The notes under the pieces were generated by a model. The model did no database searches, was not told where the DNA came from, and was given only the letters and a program-made list of their open reading frames with translations. This document shows, piece after piece, positions 12,849 to 62,148 of a DNA stretch of 64,000 nucleotides; positions within the stretch are counted from its first letter, which is position 1, and each line of letters opens with the position of its first letter. The position numbers were made by a program, and so were the translations under genes. The stretch is from NCBI GenBank assembly GCA_023205875.1, contig CP060761.1:62001-126000 (forward strand), read 5' to 3'. The stretch is from Chloropicon primus (lineage: Eukaryota).

Positions 12849-15800
12849 TCAATTTTGAGCAGAGTCTTTTTCGAGGGTCAGACCCCTTCCCTTGTTCATC
12901 TTGAACTTGCCAATGGCCTTCAGCTTGTTTCTGACTGCCAACCATTCTGGTTCGGCAGACTTGGCAGGCTTTTGGCTCGTGGACTTGGATGCCATTCTAG
13001 CAGTCTCAACGTGTCTCAGCTTGGAACGGGCCTGGTTGATGATAGACATGAAGTTGTTCTTGGCATCCATGCTCATCTTTCCGCTCAACAAGGCTCCCTG
13101 TTCGATCTTGTTCAAACTCTGCTTGAGCTGTGCGAGCTTCTCTGCGTTCATTTCTGCACCGGCAGTCTGCACGTTTCCTTCCACTTGAGAATCGACGAGA
13201 TCAGCATTCAAGTCTTGCCAAGTTTGCATCGCAACCTCAAGCATCTCGTTGTCGCCAGAGTGCTCAAGAACACACTCCGATATTTGCTCAAAGGATGCTT
13301 CGAAATCTGCACCAAGCTTTGACATAATCATCTCGAAACTCTCCTCGTGACCAATGTCCTTTCCTCCCGAACTTCCCGGGACCGTGCTGTACAGAGGGTT
13401 GCTGTACGCTGAACCGGATCCCGAGGCGTCGTGAGCGAGCAACTCGGTCTCCGAATCGCTTGCGTTGGGTGAGTCTGGAATTTCCACGTCGTCCGCAGTA
13501 TCAAACAAAGGATTCGACAAGAAAGACATTCTTCCACCAGAGTTCATGGCATTCGACACACCAGCAGTACTCTTCCTAGTCTTCCCAGAGGAAGCAAACA
13601 TAGGATTCATCAAGAGCATGCTTTGGTTCCTTCCCCCAAAGATGTTGGGTTGGTCTTGTCCGAGTGGTTTGTAAATGCTAGAATTCTGTGGCCTGTGTTC
13701 TCCCCTCTTTCTCTTCTGCCTGACGTACACGAAGGCAAGTCCCATCATGCAGCAGACCGCTGCACCGACGATGCCACCGACCATGACCATGGAAACGGAA
13801 GCAGTGGAAACCTCGCCCTCGGCGTCTCCGGTCTCGGACTCGAGCTTTCCGCCTTCCGTCTCCTCGACCTCGGAGGACGTCGTATCGCTTCCGTCGTGCG
13901 ACTGGCCATCTTCAGAGTCTTGTCCCTCGCCATCAGAGTTAGAATCTTCATCATCCGTCACAAGGCCAGACCCATCTGTCGAGTTCGAGGCTGGAGGTGG
14001 TGGCGGCGGCGACAGCTGCTCGCACCCGCTTGTGGTACAAGACTGGAAGTCCTGCGTGTAAGCACACTCCTTTCCGTTGTTTTCAGCTGCGCTGACGATG
14101 TCGTAGTATCTGCATCTAGTGTAGAGATCACTGTCAGAATCCAATTCACATTCACCGTACTCTGACCATTCTCCAACACAGTTGACAGGTTCACCACATC
14201 CATCAGAAGAGCACTTAATTTCATTGTGCTCGAAAGCGCACTTCTTGCCATTGTATCTGTCTTCAGAAATCATTTCAAACCTCTGGCACTGCATGTTCTT
14301 TCCGCTGCTTTCGTCATAAGAGCAAGTTGAGTAATCCTCCCAGACTCCCGCGCAGTCCACTGGCTGAGCGCAACCGTCGTTGGTGCACTGCTGGAAAGCG
14401 TCAACGTGAGGGCAAGCGTAACCATTGTGGGCCACTGGGATAGAGACCTTGTACAACCTGCACTTCTTGTTCTTGTGAGCGTCCTCGTCATACTCGCAAG
14501 CATCGAATTCATCCCAAGATCCAACACAGTCCACGGGCTGAGTGCAACCAGTTTCAGTGCACTGAACATACTCGTTTGCGTATGGGCAAGCATATCCGTT
14601 GTGAGCAGCAGAGCGAGCCACGGCATAGGTGCGGCACCTCTTGTTCTTGTGCTCAGATTCATCATGTTGGCACAATCCGTAATCTTCCCAAGATCCAACA
14701 CAATCCACGGGCTGAGAGCAGCCTCTAGTTGTGCACTGCTTGTAGGCATTGGCGTATGGGCAACCGTAACCGCTGTGAGCGGCATCTGTGCTGACAACAT
14801 AGTTCCTGCACCTCCTGTTCTTGTGATCATTAGAATCATGGAAGCACGCACCATACGATCCCCAGTCGCCAACGCAGTCGACAGGCTGAGAGCAACCCTC
14901 GGTGATGCAATCCACCTTGCCATTCTTGTGTGGGCATTGCTTTCCGTTCAAGTCTGCCTTGGTGGTCACAGCATATGTTCTGCAGCGCTCGTTCTTGTGG
15001 CCCGCAGCAACATGCGAGCAAGCGCCATAGATGGACCACTCTCCCTCGCAGTCCACGGGCTGGCCACAACCACCCTTGGTGCATTGCCTCAAGTTGTCCT
15101 CGTGTGGGCAAGCATAACCATTGTTCATGGCGACCTGGCTCACACCGTACACGCGGCAGCGCTCGTTCTTGTGGTCAGCCTCAACATATCCACAGGCATC
15201 ATAGTTGCCCCAAGATCCAACGCAGTCCACTGGCTGAGCGCAACCGTCGTTGGTGCACTGCTGGAAAGAGTTGGTGTATGGGCAAGCGTGTCCATTGTGG
15301 GCCGCTGGAACTGCGATCTTGTACAACCTGCACTTCTTGTTCTTGTGAGCGTCATCGTCATGCTCGCAAGAATCATACTGATCCCACGCTCCAACACAGT
15401 CCACTGGCTGAGAACAACCAGTGTCAGTGCACTGCTTGTGGTTGTTGTTGTATGGACATGTGTATCCGTTGTGGGCTGCAGAGCGTGTCACGGCATAGGT
15501 GCGGCACCTCTTGTTCTTGTGCTCAGATTCGTCATAATAGCATGTGCCATACTCCTCCCAAGAGCCCAAGCAGTCCACTGGCTGAGAGCAGCCCTCGGTC
15601 GTGCACTGCTTGTAGGCATTGGCGTATGGGCAACCGTAACCGTTGTGAGCACTGCTTGTACTGATGGCGTAGGTTCTGCATCTCTTGTTATGATGATTTT
15701 CGGTGTCATAAAAGCAAGTTGTGTAATCACCCCAGTCGCCAACACAGTCCACAGGCTGAGAGCATCCTGCCTTTGTGCAATCTTCGTGGTCGTGCACGTA

Positions 15801-18800
15801 CTCACACTGCTTGCCATTCTTTTCCGCCTCCACCTTAATGACATACTTCCTGCATTTGAAACTGTCGTGAGATTTTTCTCTGTACGAGCATTGACCATAA
15901 GGACCCCACTCTCCCTCGCAGTCCACGGGCTGGCCACAACCACCCTTGGTGCATTGCCTCAAGTTGTCCTCGTGTGGGCAAGCATAACCGTTGTTCATGG
16001 CGACCTGGCTCACACTGTACACGCGGCAACGCTCGTTCTCGTGACCTTCACCAACATAATGACAGGCATCATAATTGCCCCAAGATCCAACGCAGTCCAC
16101 TGGCTGAGCGCAACCGTCGTTGGTGCACTGCTGGAAAGAGTTGGTGTATGGGCAAGCGTGTCCATTGTGGGCCGCTGGAACTGCGATCTTGTACAACCTG
16201 CACTTCTTGTTCGTATGATCATCGTCGTGATGACCACAGAATGAATACTCATCCCATCCACCAACACAGTCCACGGGCTGAGTGCAACCAGTTTCAGTGC
16301 ACTGCTTGAAATTCTCCGTATATGCGCACTCGTAACCATTGTGAGCAGCAGAGCGTGTCACGGCATAGGTGCGGCACCTCTTGTTCTTGTGCTCAGATTC
16401 ATCATGTTGGCACAATCCGTAATCTTCCCAAGATCCAACGCAGTCCACGGGCTGAGAGCAACCCTCGGTCGTGCACTGCTTGTAGGCGTTGGCGTATGGG
16501 CAACCGAAACCGTTGTGAGCGGCATGGGTAGTGACCGCGTAGTTCCTGCACCTCCTGTTCTTGTGATCATTAGAATCATGGAAGCACGCACCATACGATC
16601 CCCAGTTACCAATGCAGTCGACAGGCTGAGAGCAACCCTCGGTGATGCAATCCACCTTGCCATTCTTGTGTGGGCATTGCTTTCCGTTCAAGTCTGCCTT
16701 GGTGGTCACAGCATATGTTCTGCAGCGCTCGTTCTTGTGGCCCGCAGCAACATGCGAGCAAGCGCCATAGATGGACCACTCTCCCTCGCAGTCCACGGGC
16801 TGGCCACAACCACCCTTGGTGCATTGCCTCAAGTTGTCCTCGTGTGGGCAAGCATAACCATTGTTCATGGCGACCTGGCTCACACTGTACACGCGGCAGC
16901 GCTCGTTCTTGTGGTCAGCCTCAACATATCCACAGGCATCATAGTTGCCCCAAGATCCAACGCAGTCCACTGGCTGAGCGCAACCGTCGTTGGTGCACTG
17001 CTGGAAAGAGTTGGTGTATGGGCAAGCGTGTCCATTGTGGGCCGCTGGAACTGCGATCTTGTACAACCTGCACTTCTTGTTCTTGTGAGCGTCATCGTCA
17101 TGCTCGCAAGAATCATACTGATCCCACGCTCCAACACAGTCCACGGGCTGGGAGCAACCAGTGTCAGTGCACTGCACGTAGCTATCCACATATGGACAAG
17201 AATATCCTCCATGCGCAGATGCCTTTGTAACAGTATAAGTCCTGCACTTCTTGTTCTTATGGTTTTCACCATCATAAAAGCATGTGCCATACTCCTCCCA
17301 AGATCCAACACAATCCACGGGCTGAGAGCAACCCTCGGTCGTGCACTGCTTGTAGGCATTGGCGTATGGGCAACCGAAACCGTTGTGAGCGGCGTTGGTG
17401 CTGACAACATAGTTCCTGCACCTCCTGTTCTTGTGGTCTGCGGTGTCGTGGTAGCACGTTCCGTAAGCGCCCCAGTCGCCAACGCAGTCGACAGGCTGAG
17501 AGCAACCCTCGGTGATGCAATCCACCTTGCCATTCTTGTGTGGGCATTGCTTTCCGTTCAAGTCTGCCTTGGTGGTCACAGCATATGTTCTGCAGCGCTC
17601 GTTCTTGTGGCCCGCAGCAACATGCGAGCAAGCGCCATAGATGGACCACTCTCCCTCGCAGTCCACGGGCTGGCCACAACCACCCTTGGTGCATTGCCTC
17701 AAGTTGTCCTCGTGTGGGCAAGCATAACCATTGTTCATGGCGACCTGGCTCACACCGTACACGCGGCAGCGCTCGTTCTCGTGGTCAGCCTCAACATATC
17801 CACAGGCATCATAGTTGCCCCAAGATCCAACGCAGTCCACTGGCTGAGCGCAACCGTCGTTGGTGCACTGCTGGAAAGAGTTGGTGTATGGGCAAGCGTG
17901 TCCATTGTGGGCCGCTGGGACAGAGACCTTGTACAACCTGCACTTCTTGTTCTTGTGAGTGTCCTTGTCATGCTCGCAAGAATCATACTGATCCCACGCT
18001 CCAACACAGTCCACGGGCTGGGAGCAACCAGCTTCAGTGCATTCCTTCTCATCGTTCTCGTGTGAACATTCAATTCCGTTGTGAGAAGACTCTAAAGAAA
18101 TTTTGTAGAGTCTGCACTTCTTGTTCTTGTGCTCCTCAGACTTGTAGTCACACATATCGTACTCTTCCCAAGCTCCGGCACAATCCACTGGCTGCGAGCA
18201 ACCAGTCAATGTGCATTGAAGAGTGTTGTCAGAATACGCACAAGCAAAACCATTGTGAGCAGCAGAGCGTGTCACGGCATAGGTGCGGCACCTCTTGTTC
18301 TTGTGCTCAGATTCATCATGTTGGCACAATCCGTAATCTTCCCAAGATCCAACGCAGTCCACGGGCTGAGAGCAACCCTCGGTCGTGCACTGCTTGTAGG
18401 CATTGGCATATGGGCAACCGAAACCGTTGTGAGCGGCGTTGGTGCTGACAACATAGTTCCTGCACCTCCTGTTCTTGTGGTCTGCGGTGTCGTGGTAGCA
18501 CGTTCCGTAAGCGCCCCAGTCGCCAACGCAGTCGACAGGCTGAGAGCAACCCTCGGTGATGCAATCCACCTTGCCATTCTTGTATGGGCATTGCTTTCCA
18601 TTCAAGTCTGCCTTGGTGGTCACAGCATATGTTCTGCAGCGCTCGTTCTTGTGGCCCGCAGCAACATGCGAGCAAGCGCCATAGATGGACCACTCTCCCT
18701 CGCAGTCCACGGGCTGGCCACAACCACCCTTGGTGCATTGCTTCAAGTTGTCCTCGTGTGGGCAAGCATAACCATTGTTCATGGCGACCTGGCTCACACC

Positions 18801-21800
18801 GTACACGCGGCAGCGCTCGTTCTTGTGGTCAGCCTCAACATATCCACAGGCATCATAGTTGCCCCAAGATCCAACGCAGTCCACTGGCTGAGCGCAACCG
18901 TCGTTGGTGCACTGCTGGAAAGAGTTGGTGTATGGGCAAGCGTGTCCATTGTGGGCCGCTGGAACTGCGATCTTGTACAACCTGCACTTCTTGTTCTTGT
19001 GAGCGTCATCGTCATGCTCGCAAGAATCATACTGATCCCACGCTCCAACACAGTCCACGGGCTGGGAGCAACCAGTGTCAGTGCACTGCACGTAGCTATC
19101 CACATATGGACAAGAATATCCTCCATGCGCAGATGCCTTTGTAACAGTATAAGTCCTGCACTTCTTGTTCTTATGGTTTTCACCATCATAAAAGCATGTG
19201 CCATACTCCTCCCAAGATCCAACACAATCCACGGGCTGAGAGCAACCCTCGGTCGTGCACTGCTTGTAGGCATTGGCATATGGGCAACCGAAACCGTTGT
19301 GAGCGGCGTTGGTGCTGACAACATAGTTCCTGCACCTCCTGTTCTTGTGGTCTGCGGTGTCGTGGTAGCACGTTCCGTAAGCGCCCCAGTCGCCAACGCA
19401 GTCGACAGGCTGAGAGCAACCCTCGGTGATGCAATCCACCTTGCCATTCTTGTGTGGGCATTGCTTTCCGTTCAAGTCTGCCTTGGTGGTCACAGCATAT
19501 GTTCTGCAGCGCTCGTTCTTGTGGCCCGCAGCAACATGCGAGCAAGCGCCATAGATGGACCACTCTCCCTCGCAGTCCACGGGCTGGCCACAACCACCCT
19601 TGGTGCATTGCCTCAAGTTGTCCTCGTGTGGGCAAGCATAACCATTGTTCATGGCGACCTGGCTCACACCGTACACGCGGCAGCGCTCGTTCTCGTGGTC
19701 AGCCTCAACATATCCACAGGCATCATAGTTGCCCCAAGATCCAACGCAGTCCACTGGCTGAGCGCAACCGTCGTTGGTGCACTGCTGGAAAGAGTTGGTG
19801 TATGGGCAAGCGTGTCCATTGTGGGCCGCTGGGACAGAGACCTTGTACAACCTGCACTTCTTGTTCTTGTGAGTGTCCTTGTCATGCTCGCAAGAATCAT
19901 ACTGATCCCACGCTCCAACACAGTCCACGGGCTGGGAGCAACCAGCTTCAGTGCATTCCTTCTCATCGTTCTCGTGTGAACATTCAATTCCGTTGTGAGA
20001 AGACTCTAAAGAAATTTTGTAGAGTCTGCACTTCTTGTTCTTGTGCTCCTCAGACTTGTAGTCACACATATCGTACTCTTCCCAAGCTCCGGCACAATCC
20101 ACTGGCTGCGAGCAACCAGTCAATGTGCATTGAAGAGTGTTGTCAGAATACGCACAAGCAAAACCATTGTGAGCAGCAGAGCGTGTCACGGCATAGGTGC
20201 GGCACCTCTTGTTCTTGTGCTCAGATTCATCATGTTGGCACAATCCGTAATCTTCCCAAGATCCAACGCAGTCCACGGGCTGAGAGCAACCCTCGGTCGT
20301 GCACTGCTTGTAGGCATTGGCATATGGGCAACCGAAACCGTTGTGAGCGGCGTTGGTGCTGACAACATAGTTCCTGCACCTCCTGTTCTTGTGGTCTGCG
20401 GTGTCGTGGTAGCACGTTCCGTAAGCGCCCCAGTCGCCAACGCAGTCGACAGGCTGAGAGCAACCCTCGGTGATGCAATCCACCTTGCCATTCTTGTATG
20501 GGCATTGCTTTCCATTCAAGTCTGCCTTGGTGGTCACAGCATATGTTCTGCAGCGCTCGTTCTTGTGGCCCGCAGCAACATGCGAGCAAGCGCCATAGAT
20601 GGACCACTCTCCCTCGCAGTCCACGGGCTGGCCACAACCACCCTTGGTGCATTGCTTCAAGTTGTCCTCGTGTGGGCAAGCATAACCATTGTTCATGGCG
20701 ACCTGGCTCACACCGTACACGCGGCAGCGCTCGTTCTTGTGGTCAGCCTCAACATATCCACAGGCATCATAGTTGCCCCAAGATCCAACGCAGTCCACTG
20801 GCTGAGCGCAACCGTCGTTGGTGCACTGCTGGAAAGAGTTGGTGTATGGGCAAGCGTGTCCATTGTGGGCCGCTGGAACTGCGATCTTGTACAACCTGCA
20901 CTTCTTGTTCTTGTGAGCGTCATCGTCATGCTCGCAAGAATCATACTGATCCCACGCTCCAACACAGTCCACGGGCTGGGAGCAACCAGTGTCAGTGCAC
21001 TGCACGTAGCTATCCACATATGGACAAGAATATCCTCCATGCGCAGATGCCTTTGTAACAGTATAAGTCCTGCACTTCTTGTTCTTATGGTTTTCACCAT
21101 CATAAAAGCATGTGCCATACTCCTCCCAAGATCCAACACAATCCACGGGCTGAGAGCAACCCTCGGTCGTGCACTGCTTGTAGGCATTGGCGTATGGGCA
21201 ACCGAAACCGTTGTGAGCGGCGTTGGTGCTGACAACATAGTTCCTGCACCTCCTGTTCTTGTGGTCTGCGGTGTCGTGGTAGCACGTTCCGTAAGCGCCC
21301 CAGTCGCCAACGCAGTCGACAGGCTGAGAGCAACCCTCGGTGATGCAATCCACCTTGCCATTCTTGTGTGGGCATTGCTTTCCGTTCAAGTCTGCCTTGG
21401 TGGTCACAGCATATGTTCTGCAGCGCTCGTTCTTGTGGCCCGCAGCAACATGCGAGCAAGCGCCATAGATGGACCACTCTCCCTCGCAGTCCACGGGCTG
21501 GCCACAACCACCCTTGGTGCATTGCCTCAAGTTGTCCTCGTGTGGGCAAGCATAACCATTGTTCATGGCGACCTGGCTCACACCGTACACGCGGCAGCGC
21601 TCGTTCTCGTGGTCAGCTTCCTCGTAATGACAGGCATCATAGTTGCCCCAAGATCCAACGCAGTCCACTGGCTGAGCGCAACCGTCGTTGGTGCACTGCT
21701 GGAAAGAGTTGGTGTATGGGCAAGCGTGTCCATTGTGGGCCGCTGGAACTGCGATCTTGTACAACCTGCACTTCTTGTTCTTGTGAGTGTCCTTGTCATG

Positions 21801-30800: not shown

Positions 30801-33800
30801 ATAGGTTCTGCAGCGCTCGTTCTTGTGTGTGCCAGAGAGGAGAGCCCTTCTGGTGATTGGGTTATCCAGAGGTGGCAACATCTTGCCGTCGAGGTTGTCA
30901 GTCAAGTTGCCATTCACACCCTTGTTGAAGTCGATAGGCAAAACGTCTGGCAACTCTGGGGGCGCCACATCCGGAATGTCGGGCAAGACAGTCTTATCGC
31001 CAGCATAGTGACAGCTGGTGTAGACGGTCCACTCTCCCTCGCAGTCCACGGGCTGGCCACAACCGCTCTTGGTGCATTGCCTCAAGTTGTCCTCGTGTGG
31101 GCAAGCATAACCATTGTTCATGGCGACCTGGCTCACACTGTACACGCGGCAGCGCTCGTTCTCGTGGTCAGCTTCCTCGTAATGACAGGCATCATAGTTG
31201 CCCCAAGATCCAACGCAGTCCACCGGTTGGATGCACCCCGAGGTTGTGCACGACATCTTTCCAGCTGAGTAAGGACATCCGTGCCCATTTTGAGCAGCCG
31301 GAACAACAATCTTGTAGTTTTTGCACCTGATGTTGGTGTGCTCATCCTTGTCATACTTGCAAGAACCGTAACTTCCCCATTGTCCGGCACAGTTAACAGG
31401 CTGACCGCATCCTTGCACTGTACAAGATTCGTAGTTTTCGCTGAAGGGGCACTGGTAACCACTGTGATCCGATTTCCTGCTGATCTTGTAGTACCTGCAC
31501 CTCTTATTCTTGTGGTTTTTGTCGTCGTACTCGCACGTTCCCCAAAAACCCCATGCCCCAACGCAATCAACTGGTTGGACGCATCCGTTTGCAGTGCAGG
31601 ACTTGTACTTATTTGCATAAGCACACCCGTAACCGTTATACGTCGATGGGCTGGATACCTTGAATTCTTTGCATCTCTTGTTCTTGTGGTCTTTCGAATC
31701 GTAAAAGCAAGCCGCATAAGCACCAAATTCTCCTACGCAGTCCGCAGGCTGCGAGCAACCGTCCTTGGTGCAAGTCTTGTGGTTATGTTCAGTTGGACAT
31801 TGGTAACCATTAGAAGTTGCTGGCTGAACGATTTTGTACGTTTTGCACCGAACATTGACATGCTCATCTTGCTTGTGGGCGCACTGTCCATAGCTAGTCC
31901 ATGCGCCTGCGCAATCCACGGGCTGAACACAGCCTAACACAGTACAAGATTCTGCTTTGTCGGCATAAGGACAGCCTTTTCCATCGTGTGCTGGCGCAGA
32001 AGATATTTTGTAGTATCTGCAGCGCTTGTTCTTGTGACCGTCTTTTTCGTAAATGCAGTTGCCATAACTTTCCCATCCACCAACACAATCACTGGGTTGC
32101 ATGCAACCAGCATTCGTGCAGGATTCCTTGTTTTGAGGGTGAGGGCAGGCAAAACCATTGAATGCTGCCGCAGTCGTAATCTTGTACTTTTTGCACTTGG
32201 TGTTCTGATGTTTGTCTTGCACATAATTACAAGAGCCGTAAGCATCCCAAGATCCAACGCAGTCCACTGGCTGGGAGCAACCCGTCTTGGTGCAGGACAC
32301 GAACCCGTCGGCATAAGGACAGTTGTACCCGTCAAAAGAACTCTTTCTGTCGACCTTGTACGTTCTGCAGCGCTCGTTCTTATGGTCATTACCCAGCAAG
32401 GACCTCCTGTCTTGGGTCAAGTCGAAGTCCGGGAAGTCATCCTGTTCCACATCCTTCACAGCGTTCTTGCCATCAAGGACCACCAACAATGGGTTTGGAT
32501 CTGGAACCTGAAATCCAGCATAGGAGCAGGAGGTGTATGCACCCCAGGAGCCAAGGCAGTCAACAGGCTGGTTGCAGCCGGACAAGGTGCAGGATTCGTA
32601 CATGTTGGTGTATGGGCATCCGTAACCGTTGTGGGCAGCGTGGGTGCTGTACTTGTAGAGCCTGCACCTTCTGTTCTTGTGGTCCTTGGAGTCGTGCTTG
32701 CATGCGCCATATGGAGCCCAAGCACCAGCACAGTCCACTGGCTGAGAGCAACCTTGTGTTGTACAAGACTTGTAGCCAGCAGTGTGGGGACAACTGTAAC
32801 CGTTGTTTGCAGCATTGACTGCAACCTGGTACTTTCTGCACCTCTTGTTCTTGTGGTCCTTTCCGTCGTGGTAACAGGAAGCGTAAGCTCCCCAGGATCC
32901 AACACAATCTGTGGGCTGAGCACATCCCAAAACGGTGCAGGATTCAAAGTTGTTGTTGAAGGGGCAGCCAAGACCACCATCCTTGGCGGTCACACTGACC
33001 TTGTAAACTTTGCATCTCCTGTTCTTGTGGTCACCACTGTCATGGTGGCAAGAGTCGTAGGCACCCCAAGACCCAACGCAGTCCACTGGCTGGTTGCACC
33101 CTTGCTCAGTGCACTGCTTGAAGTTGTTGCTGAAAGGACAAGCGTAACCATTGTGGTTTGCATTCACACTGATAGTGTAGACTCTGCAGCGCTCGTTCTT
33201 GTGGCCATCGCCAAGCAAGGACCTTCTCCTGTCTTGGGTCAAGTCGAAGTCCGGGAAGTCATCCTTTTCCTTCTTCAAGACTTCTTCGCCATCAACGATC
33301 TTCAAAGGTTTCGCGGGCAGAACTGGCATCTGCGATCCGATGTAAGCGCAGGAAGAGTAAGCACCCCAGGAGCCAACACAGTCCACAGGCTGAGAGCAAC
33401 CAGAAGTGGTGCACTGCTTGTACATGTTGGTGAATGGGCATCCGTAACCGTTGTGAGCGGCGTTGGTGCTGTACTTGTAGAGCCTGCACCTCCTGTTCTT
33501 GTGGTCCTTGGAATCATGGAAGCAAGCCGCATAGGAACCCCAAGCACCAGCGCAGTCCACAGGCTGAGAGCAACCAGAAGTGGTGCACTGCTCAAAGTTG
33601 TTGGTGAATGGACATCCATAACCATTGCTGGCGGCGTTGGTCGTGTACTTGTACTTCCTGCACCTCCTGTTCTTGTGGTCTGAGCCATCATGGTAGCACG
33701 ATCCGTAAGCACTCCAAGCACCAGCACAGTCCAAAGGCTGAGAGCAGCCAGACTGAGTGCACTGGTTGTACATGTTGGTGTATGGACAGCCCTTACCGTT

Positions 33801-36800
33801 GTGAGCAACGTTGGTGCTGACAACATAGTTCCTACATCTCTTGTTCTTGTGATCGCTGTTGTCATGGAAGCAAGAGCCGTAAGCACCAAACCCTCCTGCG
33901 CAATTAACAGGCTGGGCACAGCCTTGGACAATGCATTGCATCGTACCTTCCTTGCTTGAGCACTGTTTGCCGTTCAAGTCTGCCTTGGTGGTGTACTTGT
34001 AGGTCCTGCAACGCTCGTTCTTGTGACCTGAAGAAACGTACTTACAGCTACCGTAGCCAGTCCACTCTCCCTCGCAGTCCACGGGCTGGCCGCAGCCACC
34101 CTTGGTGCAATGGCGAAGCTTGTTCGCGTGTGGGCAAGCATAACCATTGTTCAATGCAACCTGAGTCACAGTGTACACGCGGCAGCGCTCGTTCTCGTGG
34201 TCCTTAGAATCATAGTGGCAAGGGCCATAAGCACCCCAGGAGCCAACACAGTCCACAGGCTGAGAGCAACCAGAAGTGGTGCACTGCTCAAAGTTGTTGG
34301 TGAATGGGCATCCATAACCGTTGTGAGCGGCGCTCTTGGTGTACTTGTAGTTCCTGCACCTCCTGTTCTTGTGGTCAGACGCGGTATGCTTACAGGATCC
34401 GTAGGAACCCCAAGCACCAGCGCAGTCCACAGGCTGAGAGCAACCAGACTGAGTGCACTGAATGTAGTTGTTGGCATATGGGCAGCCATTTCCATTGTGG
34501 GCAGCGTTCGTAGTGACCTTGTAAGTTCTGCACTTCTTGTTCTTGTGCGTCGCACCATCGTGGTAGCAAGACCCGTAAGCACCCCAGGAGCCAACACAGT
34601 CCACAGGCTGGGCACAGCCAGACGTGGTGCATGACTTGTACATGTTGGTGTATGGGCACTCGTATCCGTTGTGCGCAGGATTTCTTGTCACCACATAAAG
34701 CCTGCAACGTTTGTTACTGTTTCCACTGAGCAAGGATCTTCTGTCTTCCCTCCACTCGTTAAAACCAGTAGCATCATCGTCAACCGTCTTTATGGACTCA
34801 ACACCAGATCCGCCACCGATGCTGCCGCCACCACTGTTTCCGGAGTTTCCGGTGGGTCCACCTTTGATTGCCCCTGTAGCCGAGCATGGACCATAGGAAT
34901 TCCAGGTTCCAAGACAGTCCACGGGTTGAGAGCAGCCTCCGGTAGTGCATTGGTTGTATCCTTGGCTGTATGGACACCCGCCACCTCCGTTGGCAGCATT
35001 TGTAGCAATGCTGTATTTCCTGCAGCGCTTGTTCTTGTGATCACTGTTGTCGTGACTGCAAGCACCATAAGCCCCGAAGCCTCCCGCGCAATTTACGGGC
35101 TGGGCACAGCCTTGGGTCGTGCAAAACTTGTGGTTGTGTGTGTACGGACAGCTGTATCCGTTGTGAGCAGAATTCTTGCTTATCTTGTAGAACCTGCACC
35201 GCTTCTGGCTTCCTCCTGAGAGTGAGCAGGATCCATAAGCACCCCACGATCCTACGCAGTCCACAGGCTGGGAGCAGCCACTGGTTGTGCAGGACTTGTA
35301 CATGTTGCTGTAAGGGCACCCATAGCCATTGCTGGCGGCGTTGGTTGTCACCTTGTAGTACTTGCACCTCTTGTTCTTGTGGTCTGCACCATCGTGGTAG
35401 CAAGACCCATAAGCGCCCCAAGCACCAGCGCAGTCCACAGGCTGAGAGCCACAGCCAGACGTGGTGCACTGCTTGTAGTTGTTGCTGTACGGGCATCCAT
35501 AACCGTTGTGAGCAGCGCTCTTGCTGTACTTGTAGTACCTGCACCTCTTGTTCTTATGATCCTTGGAATCATGGAAGCAGGAACCGTATGCTTGCCAATA
35601 ACCAGCGCAGTCCACAGGCTGTGAGCAGCCAGAGGTGGTACACTGCTTGTAGTTGAAGCTGAAAGCGCATCCATAGCCGTTGCTGGAAGCTTGGGTGCTG
35701 TACTTGTAGTACCTGCACCTCTCGTTCTTGTGGCTCGCACTCACATGGTAGCAAGCTCCATAGGAACCCCAATAACCTGAACAGTCAACTGGCTGAGAGC
35801 AACCAGAGGTGGTACACTGCTCGTAGTTGTTGGTGTATGGGCATCCGTAACCGTTGTGAGCTGGATTTTTCGTGTACTTGTACTTCCTGCACCGACTGTT
35901 CTTGTGCCCGGAGGAATGCTTGCAAGATCCATAAGCACCCCAAGCACCAGCGCAGTCCACAGGCTGAGAGCAACCAGACTGAGTGCACTGCTTGTAGTTG
36001 TTGCTGTATGGGCATTGAGACCCACCATGCGAGGCGCTCTTGCTGTGCTTGTAGTACCTGCACCTCTTGTTCTTGTGGTCAGAACCATCGTGGTAGCAAG
36101 CCGCATAGGAACCCCAGGAGCCAACACAGTTCACAGGCTGAGAGCACCCAGACGAAGTGCACTGCTTGTAGTTGTTGGCGTATGGACAGCCTTGCCCACC
36201 GTGGGCAGCATTCTTGCTGATCTTGTAGAACCTGCATCGAGTGTTCGACGAAATCTTTAGCAGAGACCTCCTATCTTCCCTCCAATCCCCACGATCGCTG
36301 TTGTCGGTCGCTCCACCGCATGACCCATACGAACCCCACGAACCAACGCAGTTCACGGGCTGAGAGCAACCAGAAGTGGTGCACTGCTGATAGTAGTTGC
36401 TGTATGGGCACCCAGCGCCGTTGCTGGCGGCGTTGGTGGTGATCTTGTAGGTTCTGCACCTCCTGTTCGTTGAACCGCTCTTGTGGCAACCTCCATAGGC
36501 ACCCCAACTTCCGGCACAGTTCACAGGCTGAGAGCAACCACTCGTCGTGCAGGATTGGTAGTAGTTGGAGTAAGGACACCCGCTACCTCCGTGAGCCGCG
36601 GCCCTGGTGATCTTGTACTTCCTGCACCTCTTGTTCTGAGAGCCAGACTTGTGGCAACCTCCATAGCTGCCCCAACTACCGGCACAGTTCACAGGCTGAG
36701 TACAACCGCTGGTGGTACAGGACTGCTGGCCATTGCTGGCTCCACAGCCGGAACCACCGTTGGAAGGGTGGGTGGTGTACCTGTAGGTCTTGCACTTTCT

Positions 36801-37673
36801 GTTTTGGGAGCCAGACTTGTGGCAGCCCCCATAACTTGACCAGTAACCCTTGCAGTTCACCGGCTGAGGGCAACCGCCCGTAGTGCAGTCCGCGTGCCAG
36901 TTACCGTATGGGCAACCAGGTCCTCCGTTCTGAGCAGAAACAGAGTGCCTGTAGTGCCTGCACTTCTGGCCGCCGCTGCAACCTCCGTAGCTGGTCCAGT
37001 AACCTTGGCAGGCCACTGCTTTGGGGCAGCCGGACGTGGAGCAGTCGCCGTGGTAGTTACCGTAAGGGCAACCAGCTCCGCCGTTCTGGGCGGAGGTGGT
37101 GTGCACGTAGTACCTGCACTTCTGACCGCCGCTGCAACCTCCGTAGCTGGTCCAGTACCCCGCGCAGTTCACCGGTTTTGGGCAACCTGAGCTCGTGCAC
37201 TGTGATTCTCCAGTTTTCATACACAGAAGATTTCTGCGTGGCGAGCCTGTTTCCTCCTGCAAGTTCCTCCTCCACCTGTTGTAAGAGTACCTGTTGTACA
37301 TGCTGTTGTACGAGTACCTCGAGGAGTACGAGTACCTGCTGTTGTAGCTATTATACGGCTGATAATAGCTCTTGGGCGCGACATAGGGCGCGACGTAGGG
37401 CGCGACGTAGGGCGCGACGTAAGGCTTTGGTGCAACGTAGGTCGAGGTGTATTTTCTGCACCTCTGGCCTCCGGAGCACGAACCGTACGAGCTCCAGTAC
37501 CCAGAGCACTGGAGCTGACGTCCCACGCGTCCTTCCTGGTCCGCTTCGATCCACTCCCCCCCCTCGCTCTCCTTCGCCTCGACCTGCAAGCTCAGCGGTC
37601 CCAGCGAACATGCGAGCACGAGGCAAGCGAGGAGCAAGAAAGCACGAAAAGTAAAAGTCTTCCTCGAATCCAT
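12849..37673 (-). CDS. Giant (8274 aa) type-I membrane protein with ~120 thrombospondin type-1 (spondin-like) repeats
   Basis: Single uninterrupted ORF with an N-terminal signal peptide. The 58-aa, 6-Cys repeat reads PVDCxGxWxxYxxC..N.RCRxYxxxxxAxHNGxxCP..QC...GC. A Pro/acidic stalk, TM helix (MVMVGGIVGAAVCCMMGLAFVYV, ~13723-13791) and RQKRKR stop-transfer precede a ~290-aa cytoplasmic tail. Confidence 0.9.
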   Translation of the reverse strand: MDSRKTFTFRAFLLLACLVLACSLGPLSLQVEAKESEGGEWIEADQEGRVGRQLQCSGYWSSYGSCSGGQRCRKYTSTYVAPKPYVAPYVAPYVAPYVAPKSYYQPYNSYNSRYSYSSRYSYNSMYNRYSYNRWRRNLQEETGSPRRNLLCMKTGESQCTSSGCPKPVNCAGYWTSYGGCSGGQKCRYYVHTTSAQNGGAGCPYGNYHGDCSTSGCPKAVACQGYWTSYGGCSGGQKCRHYRHSVSAQNGGPGCPYGNWHADCTTGGCPQPVNCKGYWSSYGGCHKSGSQNRKCKTYRYTTHPSNGGSGCGASNGQQSCTTSGCTQPVNCAGSWGSYGGCHKSGSQNKRCRKYKITRAAAHGGSGCPYSNYYQSCTTSGCSQPVNCAGSWGAYGGCHKSGSTNRRCRTYKITTNAASNGAGCPYSNYYQQCTTSGCSQPVNCVGSWGSYGSCGGATDNSDRGDWREDRRSLLKISSNTRCRFYKISKNAAHGGQGCPYANNYKQCTSSGCSQPVNCVGSWGSYAACYHDGSDHKNKRCRYYKHSKSASHGGSQCPYSNNYKQCTQSGCSQPVDCAGAWGAYGSCKHSSGHKNSRCRKYKYTKNPAHNGYGCPYTNNYEQCTTSGCSQPVDCSGYWGSYGACYHVSASHKNERCRYYKYSTQASSNGYGCAFSFNYKQCTTSGCSQPVDCAGYWQAYGSCFHDSKDHKNKRCRYYKYSKSAAHNGYGCPYSNNYKQCTTSGCGSQPVDCAGAWGAYGSCYHDGADHKNKRCKYYKVTTNAASNGYGCPYSNMYKSCTTSGCSQPVDCVGSWGAYGSCSLSGGSQKRCRFYKISKNSAHNGYSCPYTHNHKFCTTQGCAQPVNCAGGFGAYGACSHDNSDHKNKRCRKYSIATNAANGGGGCPYSQGYNQCTTGGCSQPVDCLGTWNSYGPCSATGAIKGGPTGNSGNSGGGSIGGGSGVESIKTVDDDATGFNEWREDRRSLLSGNSNKRCRLYVVTRNPAHNGYECPYTNMYKSCTTSGCAQPVDCVGSWGAYGSCYHDGATHKNKKCRTYKVTTNAAHNGNGCPYANNYIQCTQSGCSQPVDCAGAWGSYGSCKHTASDHKNRRCRNYKYTKSAAHNGYGCPFTNNFEQCTTSGCSQPVDCVGSWGAYGPCHYDSKDHENERCRVYTVTQVALNNGYACPHANKLRHCTKGGCGQPVDCEGEWTGYGSCKYVSSGHKNERCRTYKYTTKADLNGKQCSSKEGTMQCIVQGCAQPVNCAGGFGAYGSCFHDNSDHKNKRCRNYVVSTNVAHNGKGCPYTNMYNQCTQSGCSQPLDCAGAWSAYGSCYHDGSDHKNRRCRKYKYTTNAASNGYGCPFTNNFEQCTTSGCSQPVDCAGAWGSYAACFHDSKDHKNRRCRLYKYSTNAAHNGYGCPFTNMYKQCTTSGCSQPVDCVGSWGAYSSCAYIGSQMPVLPAKPLKIVDGEEVLKKEKDDFPDFDLTQDRRRSLLGDGHKNERCRVYTISVNANHNGYACPFSNNFKQCTEQGCNQPVDCVGSWGAYDSCHHDSGDHKNRRCKVYKVSVTAKDGGLGCPFNNNFESCTVLGCAQPTDCVGSWGAYASCYHDGKDHKNKRCRKYQVAVNAANNGYSCPHTAGYKSCTTQGCSQPVDCAGAWAPYGACKHDSKDHKNRRCRLYKYSTHAAHNGYGCPYTNMYESCTLSGCNQPVDCLGSWGAYTSCSYAGFQVPDPNPLLVVLDGKNAVKDVEQDDFPDFDLTQDRRSLLGNDHKNERCRTYKVDRKSSFDGYNCPYADGFVSCTKTGCSQPVDCVGSWDAYGSCNYVQDKHQNTKCKKYKITTAAAFNGFACPHPQNKESCTNAGCMQPSDCVGGWESYGNCIYEKDGHKNKRCRYYKISSAPAHDGKGCPYADKAESCTVLGCVQPVDCAGAWTSYGQCAHKQDEHVNVRCKTYKIVQPATSNGYQCPTEHNHKTCTKDGCSQPADCVGEFGAYAACFYDSKDHKNKRCKEFKVSSPSTYNGYGCAYANKYKSCTANGCVQPVDCVGAWGFWGTCEYDDKNHKNKRCRYYKISRKSDHSGYQCPFSENYESCTVQGCGQPVNCAGQWGSYGSCKYDKDEHTNIRCKNYKIVVPAAQNGHGCPYSAGKMSCTTSGCIQPVDCVGSWGNYDACHYEEADHENERCRVYSVSQVAMNNGYACPHEDNLRQCTKSGCGQPVDCEGEWTVYTSCHYAGDKTVLPDIPDVAPPELPDVLPIDFNKGVNGNLTDNLDGKMLPPLDNPITRRALLSGTHKNERCRTYVVTTKADLNGKQCPHKNGKVDCITEGCSQPVDCVGDWGAYGTCYHDTADHKNRRCRNYVVSTNAAHNGFGCPYANAYKQCTTSGCSQPVDCVGSWGAYGSCYHDGKDHKNKRCRNYEYSTNAAHNGYGCPYTNMYKQCTTSGCSQPVDCVGAWDAYGACFHDSKDHKNRRCRLYKIATNAAQNGYGCPYTNMFKQCTTSGCSQPVDCVGSWGAYSSCNYVESKGKDSSLPPKMCCKAMTAQCLACEAGLTVAEYCAQNPSTFMCDGDAKLEEKDDFPDFDLTQDRRRSLLGDGHKNERCRVYTISVNANHNGYACPFSNNFKQCTEQGCNQPVDCVGSWGAYDSCHHDSGDHKNRRCKVYKVSVTAKDGGLGCPFNNNFESCTVLGCAQPTDCVGSWGAYASCYHDGKDHKNKRCRKYQVAVNAANNGFACAYENTFKQCTVSGCAQPVDCLGGWSGYSHCQHDEFPHINKMCRKYHVERPSSNNGYTCSFPNNFEQCKKDGCSQPVDCVGAWDQYDSCEHDKDTHKNKKCRLYKVSVPAAHNGHACPYTNSFQQCTNDGCAQPVDCVGSWGNYDACHYEEADHENERCRVYGVSQVAMNNGYACPHEDNLKQCTKGGCGQPVDCEGEWTVYTSCHYAGDKTVLPDIPDVAPPELPDVLPIDFNKGVNGNLTDNLDGKMLPPLDNPITRRALLSGTHKNERCRTYVVTTPAELSGKSCSFDNGATQCITEGCSQPVDCVGDWGAYGTCYHDTADHKNRRCRNYVVSTNAAHNGFGCPYANAYKQCTTSGCSQPVDCLGAWQEYGTCKHDKSIHQNKKCRSYIVTRESSNDGYTCPYSNAYMQCTVSGCAQPIDCVGSWGNYDSCAYTSTTKSNTRCRIYSISIPNQNNGHTCSFPNSYKQCTKDGCAQPVDCVGAWDQYDSCEHDKDTHKNKKCRLYKVSVPAAHNGHACPYTNSFQQCTNDGCAQPVDCVGSWGNYDACGYVEADHENERCRVYSVSQISMNNGYACPHEDNLRQCTKSGCGQPVDCEGEWTVYTSCHYAGDKTVLPGLPDIPDVASPELPDVLPIDFNKGVDGNLTDNLDGKMLPPLDNPITRRALLSGTHKNHRCRTYVVTTKADLNGKQCPHKNGKVDCITEGCSQPVDCVGDWGAYGTCYHDTADHKNRRCRNYVVSTNAAHNGFGCPYANAYKQCTTSGCSQPVDCVGAFSEYDSCKHDKDTHKNKKCRTYLVERAADNNGFACPYVHEYVQCTTALCTQPVDCVGSWGNYDACHYEEADHENERCRVYGVSQVAMNNGYACPHEDNLKQCTKSGCGQPVDCEGEWTVYTSCHYAGDKTVLPDIPDVAPPELPDVLPIDFNKGVNGNLTDNLDGKMLPPLDNPITRRALLSGTHKNERCRTYVVTTKADLNGKQCPHKNGKVDCITEGCSQPVDCVGDWGAYGTCYHDTADHKNRRCRNYVVSTNAAHNGFGCPYANAYKQCTTEGCSQPVDCVGSWEEYGSCKHDASEHKNKKCRTYAVIVKSKANGYACPYQNDFVQCTSFGCAQPVDCLGMWDESTFSTCKHDPVKKVNKRCRNYMVTREPEHNGYDCPYTNLYKQCVKTDCSQPVDCVGAWDQYDSCEHDEDTHKNKKCRLYKVSVPAAHNGHACPYTNSFQQCTNDGCAQPVDCVGSWGNYDACGYVEADHKNERCRVYGVSQVAMNNGYACPHEDNLRQCTKGGCGQPVDCEGEWTVYTSCHYAGDKTVLPDIPDVAPPELPDVLPIDFNKGVNGNLTDNLDGKMLPPLDNPITRRALLSGTHKNERCRTYVVTTKADLNGKQCPHKNGKVDCITEGCSQPVDCVGDWGAYGTCYHDTADHKNRRCRNYVVSTNAAHNGFGCPYANAYKQCTTSGCSQPVDCAGAWGEYNACSYDVSEHKNKKCRTYTVSVSAAHNGYSCPYVDSYVQCTPSLCTQPVDCVGAWDQYDSCEHDKDTHKNKKCRLYKVSVPAAHNGHACPYTNSFQQCTNDGCAQPVDCVGSWGNYDACHYEEADHENERCRVYSVSQVAMNNGYACPHEDNLRQCTKSGCGQPVDCEGEWTVYTSCHYAGDKTVLPDIPDVAPPELPDVLPIDFNKGVNGNLTDNLDGKMLPPLDNPITRRALLSGTHKNERCRTYVVTTKADLNGKQCPHKNGKVDCITEGCSQPVDCVGDWGAYGTCYHDTADHKNRRCRNYAVSTNAAHNGFGCPYANAYKQCTTSGCSQPVDCAGAWGEYNACSYDASEHKNKKCRTYTVSVSAAHNGYSCPYVDSYVQCTPSLCTQPVDCVGAWDQYDSCEHDKDTHKNKKCRLYKVSVPAAHNGHACPYTNSFQQCTNDGCAQPVDCVGSWGNYDACDYVADSHSNQRCRVYHVEVEVKYNGFACPFKDEQIQCTKGGCGQPVDCEGDWTLYGDCSYGGKGLLPAKALNEPELLEILQDFNVSKEEQDAIKNLDVLPGEQELVEFLNDMQRRSLLGKLHSNQRCRTYEIATKAELNGKQCPHKNGKVDCITEGCSQPVDCVGDWGAYGTCYHDTADHKNRRCRNYVVSTNAAHNGYGCPYANAYKQCTTSGCSQPVDCAGAWGEYNACSYDASEHKNKKCRTYTVSVSAAHNGYSCPYVDSYVQCTPSLCTQPVDCVGAWDQYDSCEHDKDTHKNKKCRLYKVSVPAAHNGHACPYTNSFQQCTNDGCAQPVDCVGSWGNYDACGYVEADHENERCRVYGVSQVAMNNGYACPHEDNLKQCTKGGCGQPVDCEGEWTVYTSCHYAGDKTVLPDIPDVAPPELPDVLPIDFNKGVNGNLTDNLDGKMLPPLDNPITRRALLSGTHKNERCRTYVVTTKADLNGKQCPHKNGKVDCITEGCSQPVDCVGDWGAYGTCYHDTADHKNRRCRNYVVSTDAAHNGFGCPYANAYKQCTTSGCSQPVDCAGAWGEYNACSYDVSEHKNKKCRTYTISVSAAHNGYSCPYVDSYVQCTKMGCIQPVDCVGAWDQYDSCEHDKDTHKNKKCRLYKIAVPAAHNGHACPYTNSFQQCTNDGCAQPVDCVGSWGNYDACHYEEADHENERCRVYGVSQVAMNNGYACPHEDNLRQCTKGGCGQPVDCEGEWSIYGACSHVAAGHKNERCRTYAVTTKADLNGKQCPHKNGKVDCITEGCSQPVDCVGDWGAYGTCYHDTADHKNRRCRNYVVSTNAAHNGFGCPYANAYKQCTTEGCSQPVDCVGSWEEYGTCFYDGENHKNKKCRTYTVTKASAHGGYSCPYVDSYVQCTDTGCSQPVDCVGAWDQYDSCEHDDDAHKNKKCRLYKIAVPAAHNGHACPYTNSFQQCTNDGCAQPVDCVGSWGNYDACGYVEADHKNERCRVYGVSQVAMNNGYACPHEDNLKQCTKGGCGQPVDCEGEWSIYGACSHVAAGHKNERCRTYAVTTKADLNGKQCPYKNGKVDCITEGCSQPVDCVGDWGAYGTCYHDTADHKNRRCRNYVVSTNAAHNGFGCPYANAYKQCTTEGCSQPVDCVGSWEDYGLCQHDESEHKNKRCRTYAVTRSAAHNGFACAYSDNTLQCTLTGCSQPVDCAGAWEEYDMCDYKSEEHKNKKCRLYKISLESSHNGIECSHENDEKECTEAGCSQPVDCVGAWDQYDSCEHDKDTHKNKKCRLYKVSVPAAHNGHACPYTNSFQQCTNDGCAQPVDCVGSWGNYDACGYVEADHENERCRVYGVSQVAMNNGYACPHEDNLRQCTKGGCGQPVDCEGEWSIYGACSHVAAGHKNERCRTYAVTTKADLNGKQCPHKNGKVDCITEGCSQPVDCVGDWGAYGTCYHDTADHKNRRCRNYVVSTNAAHNGFGCPYANAYKQCTTEGCSQPVDCVGSWEEYGTCFYDGENHKNKKCRTYTVTKASAHGGYSCPYVDSYVQCTDTGCSQPVDCVGAWDQYDSCEHDDDAHKNKKCRLYKIAVPAAHNGHACPYTNSFQQCTNDGCAQPVDCVGSWGNYDACGYVEADHKNERCRVYGVSQVAMNNGYACPHEDNLKQCTKGGCGQPVDCEGEWSIYGACSHVAAGHKNERCRTYAVTTKADLNGKQCPYKNGKVDCITEGCSQPVDCVGDWGAYGTCYHDTADHKNRRCRNYVVSTNAAHNGFGCPYANAYKQCTTEGCSQPVDCVGSWEDYGLCQHDESEHKNKRCRTYAVTRSAAHNGFACAYSDNTLQCTLTGCSQPVDCAGAWEEYDMCDYKSEEHKNKKCRLYKISLESSHNGIECSHENDEKECTEAGCSQPVDCVGAWDQYDSCEHDKDTHKNKKCRLYKVSVPAAHNGHACPYTNSFQQCTNDGCAQPVDCVGSWGNYDACGYVEADHENERCRVYGVSQVAMNNGYACPHEDNLRQCTKGGCGQPVDCEGEWSIYGACSHVAAGHKNERCRTYAVTTKADLNGKQCPHKNGKVDCITEGCSQPVDCVGDWGAYGTCYHDTADHKNRRCRNYVVSTNAAHNGFGCPYANAYKQCTTEGCSQPVDCVGSWEEYGTCFYDGENHKNKKCRTYTVTKASAHGGYSCPYVDSYVQCTDTGCSQPVDCVGAWDQYDSCEHDDDAHKNKKCRLYKIAVPAAHNGHACPYTNSFQQCTNDGCAQPVDCVGSWGNYDACGYVEADHKNERCRVYSVSQVAMNNGYACPHEDNLRQCTKGGCGQPVDCEGEWSIYGACSHVAAGHKNERCRTYAVTTKADLNGKQCPHKNGKVDCITEGCSQPVDCIGNWGSYGACFHDSNDHKNRRCRNYAVTTHAAHNGFGCPYANAYKQCTTEGCSQPVDCVGSWEDYGLCQHDESEHKNKRCRTYAVTRSAAHNGYECAYTENFKQCTETGCTQPVDCVGGWDEYSFCGHHDDDHTNKKCRLYKIAVPAAHNGHACPYTNSFQQCTNDGCAQPVDCVGSWGNYDACHYVGEGHENERCRVYSVSQVAMNNGYACPHEDNLRQCTKGGCGQPVDCEGEWGPYGQCSYREKSHDSFKCRKYVIKVEAEKNGKQCEYVHDHEDCTKAGCSQPVDCVGDWGDYTTCFYDTENHHNKRCRTYAISTSSAHNGYGCPYANAYKQCTTEGCSQPVDCLGSWEEYGTCYYDESEHKNKRCRTYAVTRSAAHNGYTCPYNNNHKQCTDTGCSQPVDCVGAWDQYDSCEHDDDAHKNKKCRLYKIAVPAAHNGHACPYTNSFQQCTNDGCAQPVDCVGSWGNYDACGYVEADHKNERCRVYGVSQVAMNNGYACPHEDNLRQCTKGGCGQPVDCEGEWSIYGACSHVAAGHKNERCRTYAVTTKADLNGKQCPHKNGKVDCITEGCSQPVDCVGDWGSYGACFHDSNDHKNRRCRNYVVSTDAAHSGYGCPYANAYKQCTTRGCSQPVDCVGSWEDYGLCQHDESEHKNKRCRTYAVARSAAHNGYACPYANEYVQCTETGCTQPVDCVGSWDEFDACEYDEDAHKNKKCRLYKVSIPVAHNGYACPHVDAFQQCTNDGCAQPVDCAGVWEDYSTCSYDESSGKNMQCQRFEMISEDRYNGKKCAFEHNEIKCSSDGCGEPVNCVGEWSEYGECELDSDSDLYTRCRYYDIVSAAENNGKECAYTQDFQSCTTSGCEQLSPPPPPPASNSTDGSGLVTDDEDSNSDGEGQDSEDGQSHDGSDTTSSEVEETEGGKLESETGDAEGEVSTASVSMVMVGGIVGAAVCCMMGLAFVYVRQKRKRGEHRPQNSSIYKPLGQDQPNIFGGRNQSMLLMNPMFASSGKTRKSTAGVSNAMNSGGRMSFLSNPLFDTADDVEIPDSPNASDSETELLAHDASGSGSAYSNPLYSTVPGSSGGKDIGHEESFEMIMSKLGADFEASFEQISECVLEHSGDNEMLEVAMQTWQDLNADLVDSQVEGNVQTAGAEMNAEKLAQLKQSLNKIEQGALLSGKMSMDAKNNFMSIINQARSKLRHVETARMASKSTSQKPAKSAEPEWLAVRNKLKAIGKFKMNKGRGLTLEKDSAQN
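14020..37200 (-). repeat. Coding tandem array with a 174-bp monomer and 870/1044/1035/1914-bp higher-order units
   Basis: Identical shadow ORFs recur at fixed offsets: 16670, 17540, 18584, 19454, 20498, 21368 (870/1044 alternating) and 24379/25414 (1035). The monomer is 58 codons. Confidence 0.9.
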
Positions 37674-61704: not shown

Positions 61705-62148
61705 CGCCAAACAGTCCCTCCGTCAAAACTCTCTCTTTCTCTCAAGAGGGGGTGAGCTCCAAATCAAGCTTACCGCGCGTCGTCCTGGGTCGAGTCGAGC
61801 GCGAAGACGAAGCAAGAAAAAACCTGTTTCAGTCCTCCAAAATCCTCGCCCCAAGCATCGCTGGCGTCTCTCTCGTCCAACACTCACTTACCTGCGTCCA
61901 TCATCATCCAAAGCGAAGTTGGGCAAACAAACAAACAATCTCAGCGTTTCAGTCTCCCCCCAAATCCTCACCACTGGTCCAAACTCCACAACCGAGGACT
62001 CTTTCGAAAGAGAAAACGGAGACGCTTCCACCGATACCTCCCTCCCCCGTCCCCGTCCCCATCCCAAGCACCTCTCTCGTCCAACACCTTACCTTGTCTC
62101 GGGCGCGACCCTCCCCTCGCGTTTGGGTTTGGGAAAAGCTTTCCCGCC

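Follow-up and report, generated by a model that had tools for sequence, protein, structure and literature searches.

A giant predicted membrane protein of 123 TSP1-like repeats with RRxLL-ended loop inserts in the green alga Chloropicon primus

In our analysis of a 64,000-nucleotide window of the Chloropicon primus genome (the whole stretch of DNA analysed, positions 62,001 to 126,000 of contig CP060761.1), we found a single minus-strand ORF (37673..12849; 24,825 nt, no internal stops) encoding 8,274 aa plus the stop, with a mass of 908 kDa. The stop-to-stop frame upstream of the Met adds only 8 codons, and the intron-free state of the gene is read from the open frame and not from RNA. In a Kyte-Doolittle scan only two hydrophobic segments were found (aa ~5-29 and aa ~7955-7984), and the layout from N- to C-terminus is a signal-like N-terminus, 123 Cys-rich repeats (aa 55-7887), a poly-Pro/acidic stalk, a single TM helix, and a tail of 290 aa. 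A sequence-only reading of the locus had described one uninterrupted ORF of 8274 aa with a signal peptide, about 120 six-Cys repeats, a stalk, one TM helix, and a long tail in type I topology, and all of these elements were recovered; it had overlooked the RRxLL-ended inserts, the moved Cys, the conserved tail motifs, and the small gene family. The features of the gene are as follows.

12849..37673 (-): single ORF, type I membrane protein of 8,274 aa (open frame and hydropathy)
37575..37673 (-): predicted signal peptide, aa 1-~33, cut site placed by eye (hydropathy; hydrophobic N-termini in the relatives P0195, P0003, and P0007)
37512..37574 (-): short pro-segment with a GRQLQ end (RxL-type motif), directly before repeat 1 (sequence)
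22188..37511 (-): repeats 1-76, aa 55-5162, the distal part with all 14 loop inserts (repeat parsing)
14013..22187 (-): repeats 77-123, aa 5163-7887, 47 repeats without inserts and with a 5/6/11-repeat higher-order period (repeat parsing)
17365..21191 (-): exact 1,913-bp tandem duplicate (11 repeats), a recent duplication or local assembly uncertainty
13824..14012 (-): stalk, poly-Pro and acidic Ser/Gly, aa 7888-7950 (sequence)
13722..13790 (-): TM helix, aa ~7962-7984, with a conserved CC pair, then RQKRKR (hydropathy and alignment)
13389..13607 (-): tail motifs NPMF (8023), NPLF (8054), and NPLY (8092) (six of six aligned tails)
13002..13052 (-): WH2-like helix and LRHV, aa 8208-8224 (motif resemblance, without profile match)
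12912..12950 (-): conserved C-terminal PEW..R.KLK helix, aa 8242-8254 (alignment of tails)

The neighbours are ordinary eukaryotic genes (e.g., ATG16-like WD40, LRR coiled-coil, RUN-PX-Rubicon, plastid-type dicarboxylate transporter, and PPR). The lower GC content reported earlier was reproduced, the giant ORF having 53.7% against 57.7% in the rest of the window; the gap lies mostly at silent sites, with 46% GC at four-fold sites compared with 78-89% in seven of the ten ORFs around it, the remaining three having 35%, 53%, and 62%. Recent horizontal transfer as the cause of the low GC was rejected because syntenic orthologs exist. In X14, a presumed RNA run with low-depth contigs, two neighbouring genes were covered and the parts of the giant ORF examined (31000-37673 and 12849-17000) were not, which speaks neither for nor against transcription. 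Another large surface protein is encoded nearby at 205-6663 (-); it is of secreted type, 2,153 aa long, and combines LamG, IPT/TIG, filamin, DUF2341, and Kelch domains. Two tandem paralogs of 1,614 and 549 aa (42048-46889 and 48011-49657, both +) have a signal-like N-terminus and 23-24-aa Asn/Asp/Gly/Ala/Val repeats. Their first 637 nt and last 185 nt are identical, their silent-site GC is low, and Pfam gave no match; the repeats resemble those of a curlin- or ice-binding-type beta-solenoid.

Parsing of the ectodomain gave 122 repeats with six Cys and one with twelve (due to a Cys-rich insert), and 99 of the 123 are exactly 58 aa long. In the Pfam search, TSP1_spondin (PF19028) matched six of eight protein pieces, the matches covering aa 201-7884, with 55-203 bits in five multi-repeat pieces and 23 bits for single repeats against a cut-off of 41, and TSP_1 (PF00090) matched none of the pieces. 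The AlphaFold (AF2) model of repeats 22-25 has a mean pLDDT of 84 (cores ~90, insert <50), and its pTM of 0.48 means that domain-to-domain angles are not fixed. With this four-repeat model, Foldseek placed properdin first in the PDB (E 6e-5) and thrombospondin-1 TSRs ninth, and VIA-align placed thrombospondin-1 TSR2-3 first with a modest Z of 4.1 (rmsd 4.7, 103 aligned) and gave a weak match to the MIC2 TSR (Z 2.2). In a viral structure library, the named top matches were TSP1 proteins of prasinoviruses, with identities of 16-20%. When three repeats were searched by sequence in the PDB, only chance matches were returned, and the ESM Atlas search with repeats gave TSP1 clusters at 0.84-0.89, which are leads only. 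Pfam, AlphaFold, and Foldseek support the TSP1/spondin-like assignment proposed earlier, with the predicted fold in a variant that lacks the CSxTCG loop. A TSR is about 4-5 nm long, and from the repeat count the predicted contour of the array is ~0.5-0.6 µm.

The variant is defined by the position of one cysteine. The canonical CSxTCG loop, in which the third Cys lies four residues after the second, has no match in the giant protein, and a moved-Cys pattern has 109; the corresponding counts are 0 and 74 in P0195, its C. roscoffensis ortholog. The moved Cys sits between two ladder arginines of strand B (R-C-R/K). Furthermore, WxxY/F-xxC occurs at 117 places and WxxW once in the whole protein. 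Among the 150 best representatives of 1.84 billion proteins, 16 carry the moved Cys, 111 the canonical loop only, and 23 neither, and the named member identified among those 16 is a Chloropicon primus protein. The absence of CSxTCG and the W-x-x-Y in place of W-x-x-W indicate that ligand knowledge from animal TSRs may not transfer to this protein, and the moved cysteine defines a TSR variant worth structure determination. Like the arrays of F-spondin, SCO-spondin, THSD7A, properdin, and thrombospondin-1, the giant protein has a predicted tandem rod of three-stranded TSRs with an N-terminal Cys, six Cys, and, by sequence, a putative W/Y-R ladder; unlike the spondin-type arrays, it has 123 repeats and no other domain, a Cys between the ladder arginines, WxxY for WxxW, no CSxTCG in any repeat, RRxLL inserts, and a green-algal host. 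The TSR ectodomain, single TM helix, and conserved Trp near the tail end are shared with apicomplexan TRAP/MIC2/CTRP, but the giant protein differs from these in having no vWA domain, far more repeats, and a tail of 290 aa that contains helices and NPx[FY] motifs. No giant-protein piece matched a vWA (I) domain in Pfam, and the TRAP/MIC2-type short acidic tail is also absent; gliding is not known in this alga. Single-pass proteins with TSP1 repeats are already known, and this family departs from them in size, Cys position, the repeated RRxLL loops, and the tail. In other unnamed proteins, up to 53 repeats were matched. On an unrelated marine contig (L005, 2-7921, +), we noticed a canonical spondin-TSR array of at least 2,640 aa with a Thr-rich stalk and a TM helix, so that other plankton also have membrane proteins with long TSR arrays.

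We then compared the gene with its relatives. The ortholog P0195 (HKI87_01g08990, WZN59373.1) has 5,961 aa and 85 repeats and shares the layout; its first ~45 repeats follow the order of those in the giant protein, and the period of five repeats recurs. C. roscoffensis genomes have been assembled to chromosome scale (PMC12301720; papers are cited by PMC number throughout). P0195 came from a cluster look-up, as a non-representative member, and a search for relatives of 4,550-14,480 aa had listed none. A search with the tail found relatives in metagenome assemblies and in C. roscoffensis, and the downstream neighbours are syntenic in two metagenome contigs (one gene in L001 and two in L002). The named homologues come from Chloropicon, which agrees with the algal host suggested earlier. 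Based on tail identity, subfamily A (the giant protein, P0195, and P0002) is 63-68% identical within itself, and subfamily B (P0188, P0185, and P0186) is 70-75% identical within itself and 45-54% identical to A, with P0189 as one more distant copy. A further C. primus paralog, A3770_18p81450, has a tail identity of 28-32% and ~35 repeats. To the giant protein itself, tail identity is 68% for P0195, 51% for the subfamily-B paralog WZN58774.1, and 32% for the distant paralog. In databases the relatives are named 'hypothetical' or, in the case of P0188 (WZN58774.1), 'ricin B-type lectin domain-containing protein', for which Pfam gives TSP1_spondin only; P0188 starts mid-array (68+ repeats) without a signal peptide, so its gene model is probably truncated. 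The GRQLQ end of the pro-segment recurs in P0195 and P0183, as GRKLQ in P0003 and as RRQLQ in P0043. Against four related loci, using unsaturated dS only, dN/dS is 0.08-0.19 in the repeats and the tail and 0.26-0.41 in the stalk; between repeats of the giant gene itself it is 0.17-0.29. The gene is real, conserved in the Chloropicon lineage, and under purifying selection, and among the collections searched its family is seen only in this lineage. The exact giant protein is absent from a collection of 15 billion proteins, and no close relatives were found among viral contigs.

The repetitiveness of the array raises the question of whether the real gene is much shorter and its length an assembly artefact. 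Such an error would fit the long blocks of near-identical sequence and the exact tandem duplicate of 1,913 bp, no examined contig crosses the whole array, and metagenome assemblies give versions of 1,155-2,938 aa. Nevertheless, the separate chromosome-scale assembly of C. roscoffensis has 5,961 aa in the same order and period, and 93 of the 123 repeat units are distinct in DNA. Contig depth over baseline in runs X1 and X2 also tracks k-mer copy number in the window (5.7/6.8 against 6.8; 13.4 against 11.5; 2.2 against 2.0), a rough comparison, and X1 and X2 may themselves derive from the source sample. The match fails in four of 14 segments, namely the stalk/TM segment in both runs (2.1-2.5 against 1) and two others (1.7-1.8 against 1). 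We consider such an artefact very improbable, with the tandem duplicate leaving the repeat count uncertain by about eleven. The stalk/TM stretch (13705-14075) is single-copy in the window at a contig depth of 2.1-2.5x in X1/X2, and in another species the A and B paralogs (L002 ~784-1030 against L003) are 93-97% identical in DNA at this place and 54-82% elsewhere, which suggests gene conversion between paralogs or an assembly join. An X1 contig carries 16 clustered differences at 36825-36867 (repeats 3-4), from another allele or a paralog N-terminus.

Could the protein defend the cell against viruses or grazers, as a coat or a decoy that is shed, and be related to algal-virus TSP1 rods? Prasinovirus TSP1 proteins (Ostreococcus mediterraneus virus 2, E 4e-9; Micromonas virus SP1) are among the closest structural matches in the viral library, and like the giant protein the prasinovirus and giant-virus rods consist of tandem spondin-like TSRs, though much shorter ones (the 16 matches at E<=0.001 are 179-671 aa); repeat number also varies by species (123 against 85). 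However, the identity of these matches is only 16-20%, the viral contigs gave no close relative, the moved-Cys repeat is confined to 16 of the 150 top representatives with the named one from Chloropicon, and there is no sign of diversifying selection. We give the decoy a slim chance.

In the distal part of the array, we found loop inserts in 14 repeats (1, 7, 15, 23, 27, 35, 39, 45, 51, 55, 61, 66, 71, and 76), placed between C2 and C3 in thirteen and between C3 and C4 in one. Every one of the 14 is closed by RR(S/A/N)LL, and all 14 occurrences of RxLL in the giant protein lie inside inserts, compared with a mean of 0.44 and a maximum of 4 in 10,000 shuffles of the inserts; seven of the inserts are copies of one type and hence not independent. 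The same motif ends inserts of P0006, P0008, and P0003, and in P0195 RSL[LQ] occurs in 11 of 11 inserts, with insert positions shared at repeats 1, 7, 15, 23, 27, 35, 39, and 45. In four orthologous repeat pairs with P0183, inserts are 36-64% identical and cores 71-82%. Across 134 other TSP1 proteins, RRxL[LQ] occurs four times in 165,325 aa. The spacing between internal RRxLL sites is 273-519 aa, and no site lies in the final 3,155 aa. Eight of the nine N-glycosylation sequons of the ectodomain also fall in loop inserts. Two inserts have additional features. The insert of repeat 39 (29802-30185, -) contains a mini-module of six Cys, CC..C...C........C......C, which P0195 and P0006 share and which is possibly a displayed disulfide domain; the insert of repeat 1 (37170-37511, -) has PYVA repeats and a Tyr/Ser/Asn-rich stretch followed by two RRNL motifs, varies among species, and is a candidate binding or cross-linking tip.

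Sites of the Arabidopsis protease S1P/SBT6.1, which acts in the early Golgi, are RRxL and RxxL/RxLx (PMC13082318), and diatom wall proteins lose RXL segments, silicanin-1 being an RXL-processed single-pass wall protein (PMC5525289). By sequence and model, all 14 inserts fit the S1P/SBT6.1 pattern (RxxL/RxLx in an exposed lumenal loop), the insert loop being disordered in the AF2 model. RRxLL is thus a site-1-protease-type motif kept while the rest of the insert diverges, and likely a cut site, as judged from sequence. In the AF2 model, C1 and C2 lie ten residues apart on the extended strand A before the loop and C3-C6 lie after it; C1 and C2 on an extended strand most likely pair with Cys after the loop, so that a cut would nick the chain without release, a pairing deduced from this arrangement and not read from coordinates. 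The giant protein resembles the S1P substrates RALF23 and CLEL6 and the diatom RXL proteins (silaffins, silicanin-1) in carrying RRxL/RxLx in a secretory protein, but unlike S1P substrates it has the motif 14 times inside folded, disulfide-closed domains, where a cut would release no peptide or pro-domain. Subfamily-B P0188 has no insert in 68 repeats (its N-terminus is apparently missing), P0005 has none in the parts seen, and the distant paralog P0007 has several shorter inserts without RxLL, which indicates that nicking is not needed family-wide.

The cytosolic tail is also conserved. All six aligned tails keep NPMF, NPLF, and NPL(Y/F) (the third motif is NPLF in L004), along with KL..LKQSLNKIEQG, NQAR..LR(H/S)VE, and EW...R.KL, and the tail is basic at its end. 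The helical motifs are also present in the tail of the distant paralog, there with LRRV, and across relatives the LRHV position reads LRHV, LRSV, or LRRV. NPxY is an integrin-beta and endocytic adaptor motif; a weak Pfam match to Integrin_b_cyt on one relative (E 0.22) is not significant. The helix and LRHV resemble WH2/beta-thymosin at the level of the motif, fitting the WH2 pattern of an amphipathic helix and then an LKKT/LRRV-type motif. No WH2 profile or solved WH2 sequence matched in Pfam (E<=1, E<=10) or among PDB sequences. The structure model of the tail is poor (mean pLDDT 39), with a helix at 372-401 in the model preceding LRHV, and co-folding of tail aa 8171-8264 with a stand-in actin scored 0.00, in a run without alignment and with the partner poorly folded. 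A genome-paper supplement lists actin and Arp2/3 genes in C. primus. Actin binding by the helix-LRHV stretch is a lead only. With the tail as query, the ESM Atlas gave no usable match, and Pfam, ESM Atlas, and PDB-sequence searches gave no catalytic or known signalling domain.

These tail features bear on the possibility that the protein is a wall-integrity or mechanical sensor like a signalling mucin, with an ectodomain that reaches across the wall and comes off in pieces under stress or reduction, and a tail that signals through NPx[FY] binders. The type I layout, the long conserved tail with three such motifs, and the repeated predicted cut sites are in line with a sensor, but the tail has no catalytic or known signalling domain and the ~0.5-µm length far exceeds the need of a thin wall; we regard it as quite unlikely.

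Chloropicon species are picoalgae that abound in the open ocean; their genomes are streamlined, and surface structures are not known from them (PMC5656628, PMC6731263, PMC12301720). Vegetative cells are 2-4 µm in size, have smooth, thin, layered walls in EM, and lack flagella and known sex, while fibrils can occur on the wall in Chloroparvula (PMC5656628), and the genomes keep meiosis and near-complete flagellar gene sets, with meiosis genes barely expressed vegetatively (PMC6731263, PMC12301720). A description of the giant family was not found in our literature searches, whose coverage lay outside subscription journals; 'TSP' and 'spondin' are absent from the main text of both Chloropicon genome papers (PMC6731263, PMC12301720), 'spondin' from 12 of 20 supplement files of one set and one other file, and the available part of PMC12906663 has no mention of TSP. 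The smooth wall surface argues against a constitutive appendage on vegetative cells. Of the long filamentous appendage proposed in the sequence-only reading, the hundreds-of-nm rod is predicted from repeat count and TSR length, while the smooth wall in EM (PMC5656628) speaks against its constitutive display on such cells. A receptor function and the roles proposed with it (adhesion, cell-coat fibrils, gamete recognition, and virus or grazer interaction) are candidates.

The main rival to a free appendage is a structural wall scaffold or polyprotein, a rod lying within the layered wall or a wall-forming vesicle, matured at RRxLL and with a tail that ties assembly to the cortex. Such a scaffold fits the smooth layered wall (PMC5656628), the RXL-processed single-pass wall proteins of diatoms (silicanin-1; PMC5525289), and selection that is purifying and not diversifying. 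However, silent-site GC far under that of most neighbours would be odd for an abundant housekeeping protein, and the proximal 47 repeats have no cut site. We consider the scaffold somewhat unlikely, with the sensor and the decoy weaker still.

The explanation we favour, at a little short of an even chance, is a membrane-anchored ~0.5-µm rod of 123 TSP1 repeats that is likely nicked at 14 RRxLL loops, stays joined by disulfides, and probably acts as a tether or adhesin. Conceivably, secretion and folding with ~370 disulfides would be followed by cutting of the disordered loops, directly behind RRxLL, by a Golgi protease of site-1 type, a step that the motifs make fairly probable. The cut domains would stay stapled, so that the distal two-thirds would bear mostly acidic side arms of 25-80 aa above a base of 47 uncut repeats, and reduction would shed pieces of 270-520 aa. 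The NPx[FY] motifs may then recruit sorting or PTB/FERM-type adaptors and helix-LRHV may bind actin in a WH2-like manner, which we put forward quite tentatively. Attachment between cells or to surfaces would come last, most plausibly in an unobserved flagellate or sexual stage, which we hold to be a real possibility though short of probable; the smooth vegetative walls, together with flagellar and meiotic genes kept for a never-seen stage, are best fitted by a stage-specific adhesin. A bolder version of the tether, a 'perforated' half-micrometre structure with 14 nick sites that is joined by disulfides alone, could be shed in pieces by redox or force, has a WH2-type actin link, and mediates gamete or swimming-stage adhesion, is in our estimate unlikely.

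If this bolder version is correct, the protein would be an adhesion machine of a hidden stage, and its processing would be of a kind new for giant surface proteins. The nick-but-stapled design, if confirmed, would extend site-1-protease biology from peptide release to the tailoring of giant rods. Despite its streamlined genomes, Chloropicon retains more than one TSP1 membrane protein of very large size, held by purifying selection, and the family offers a marker and an antibody target for a suspected hidden life stage or for wall building. As a separate observation, eukaryotic actin motif matches were found in 47 stretches of prokaryotic genome assemblies (L016-L062), many on short contaminant-like contigs and some on long cyanobacterial or other MAG contigs; one contig has five copies.
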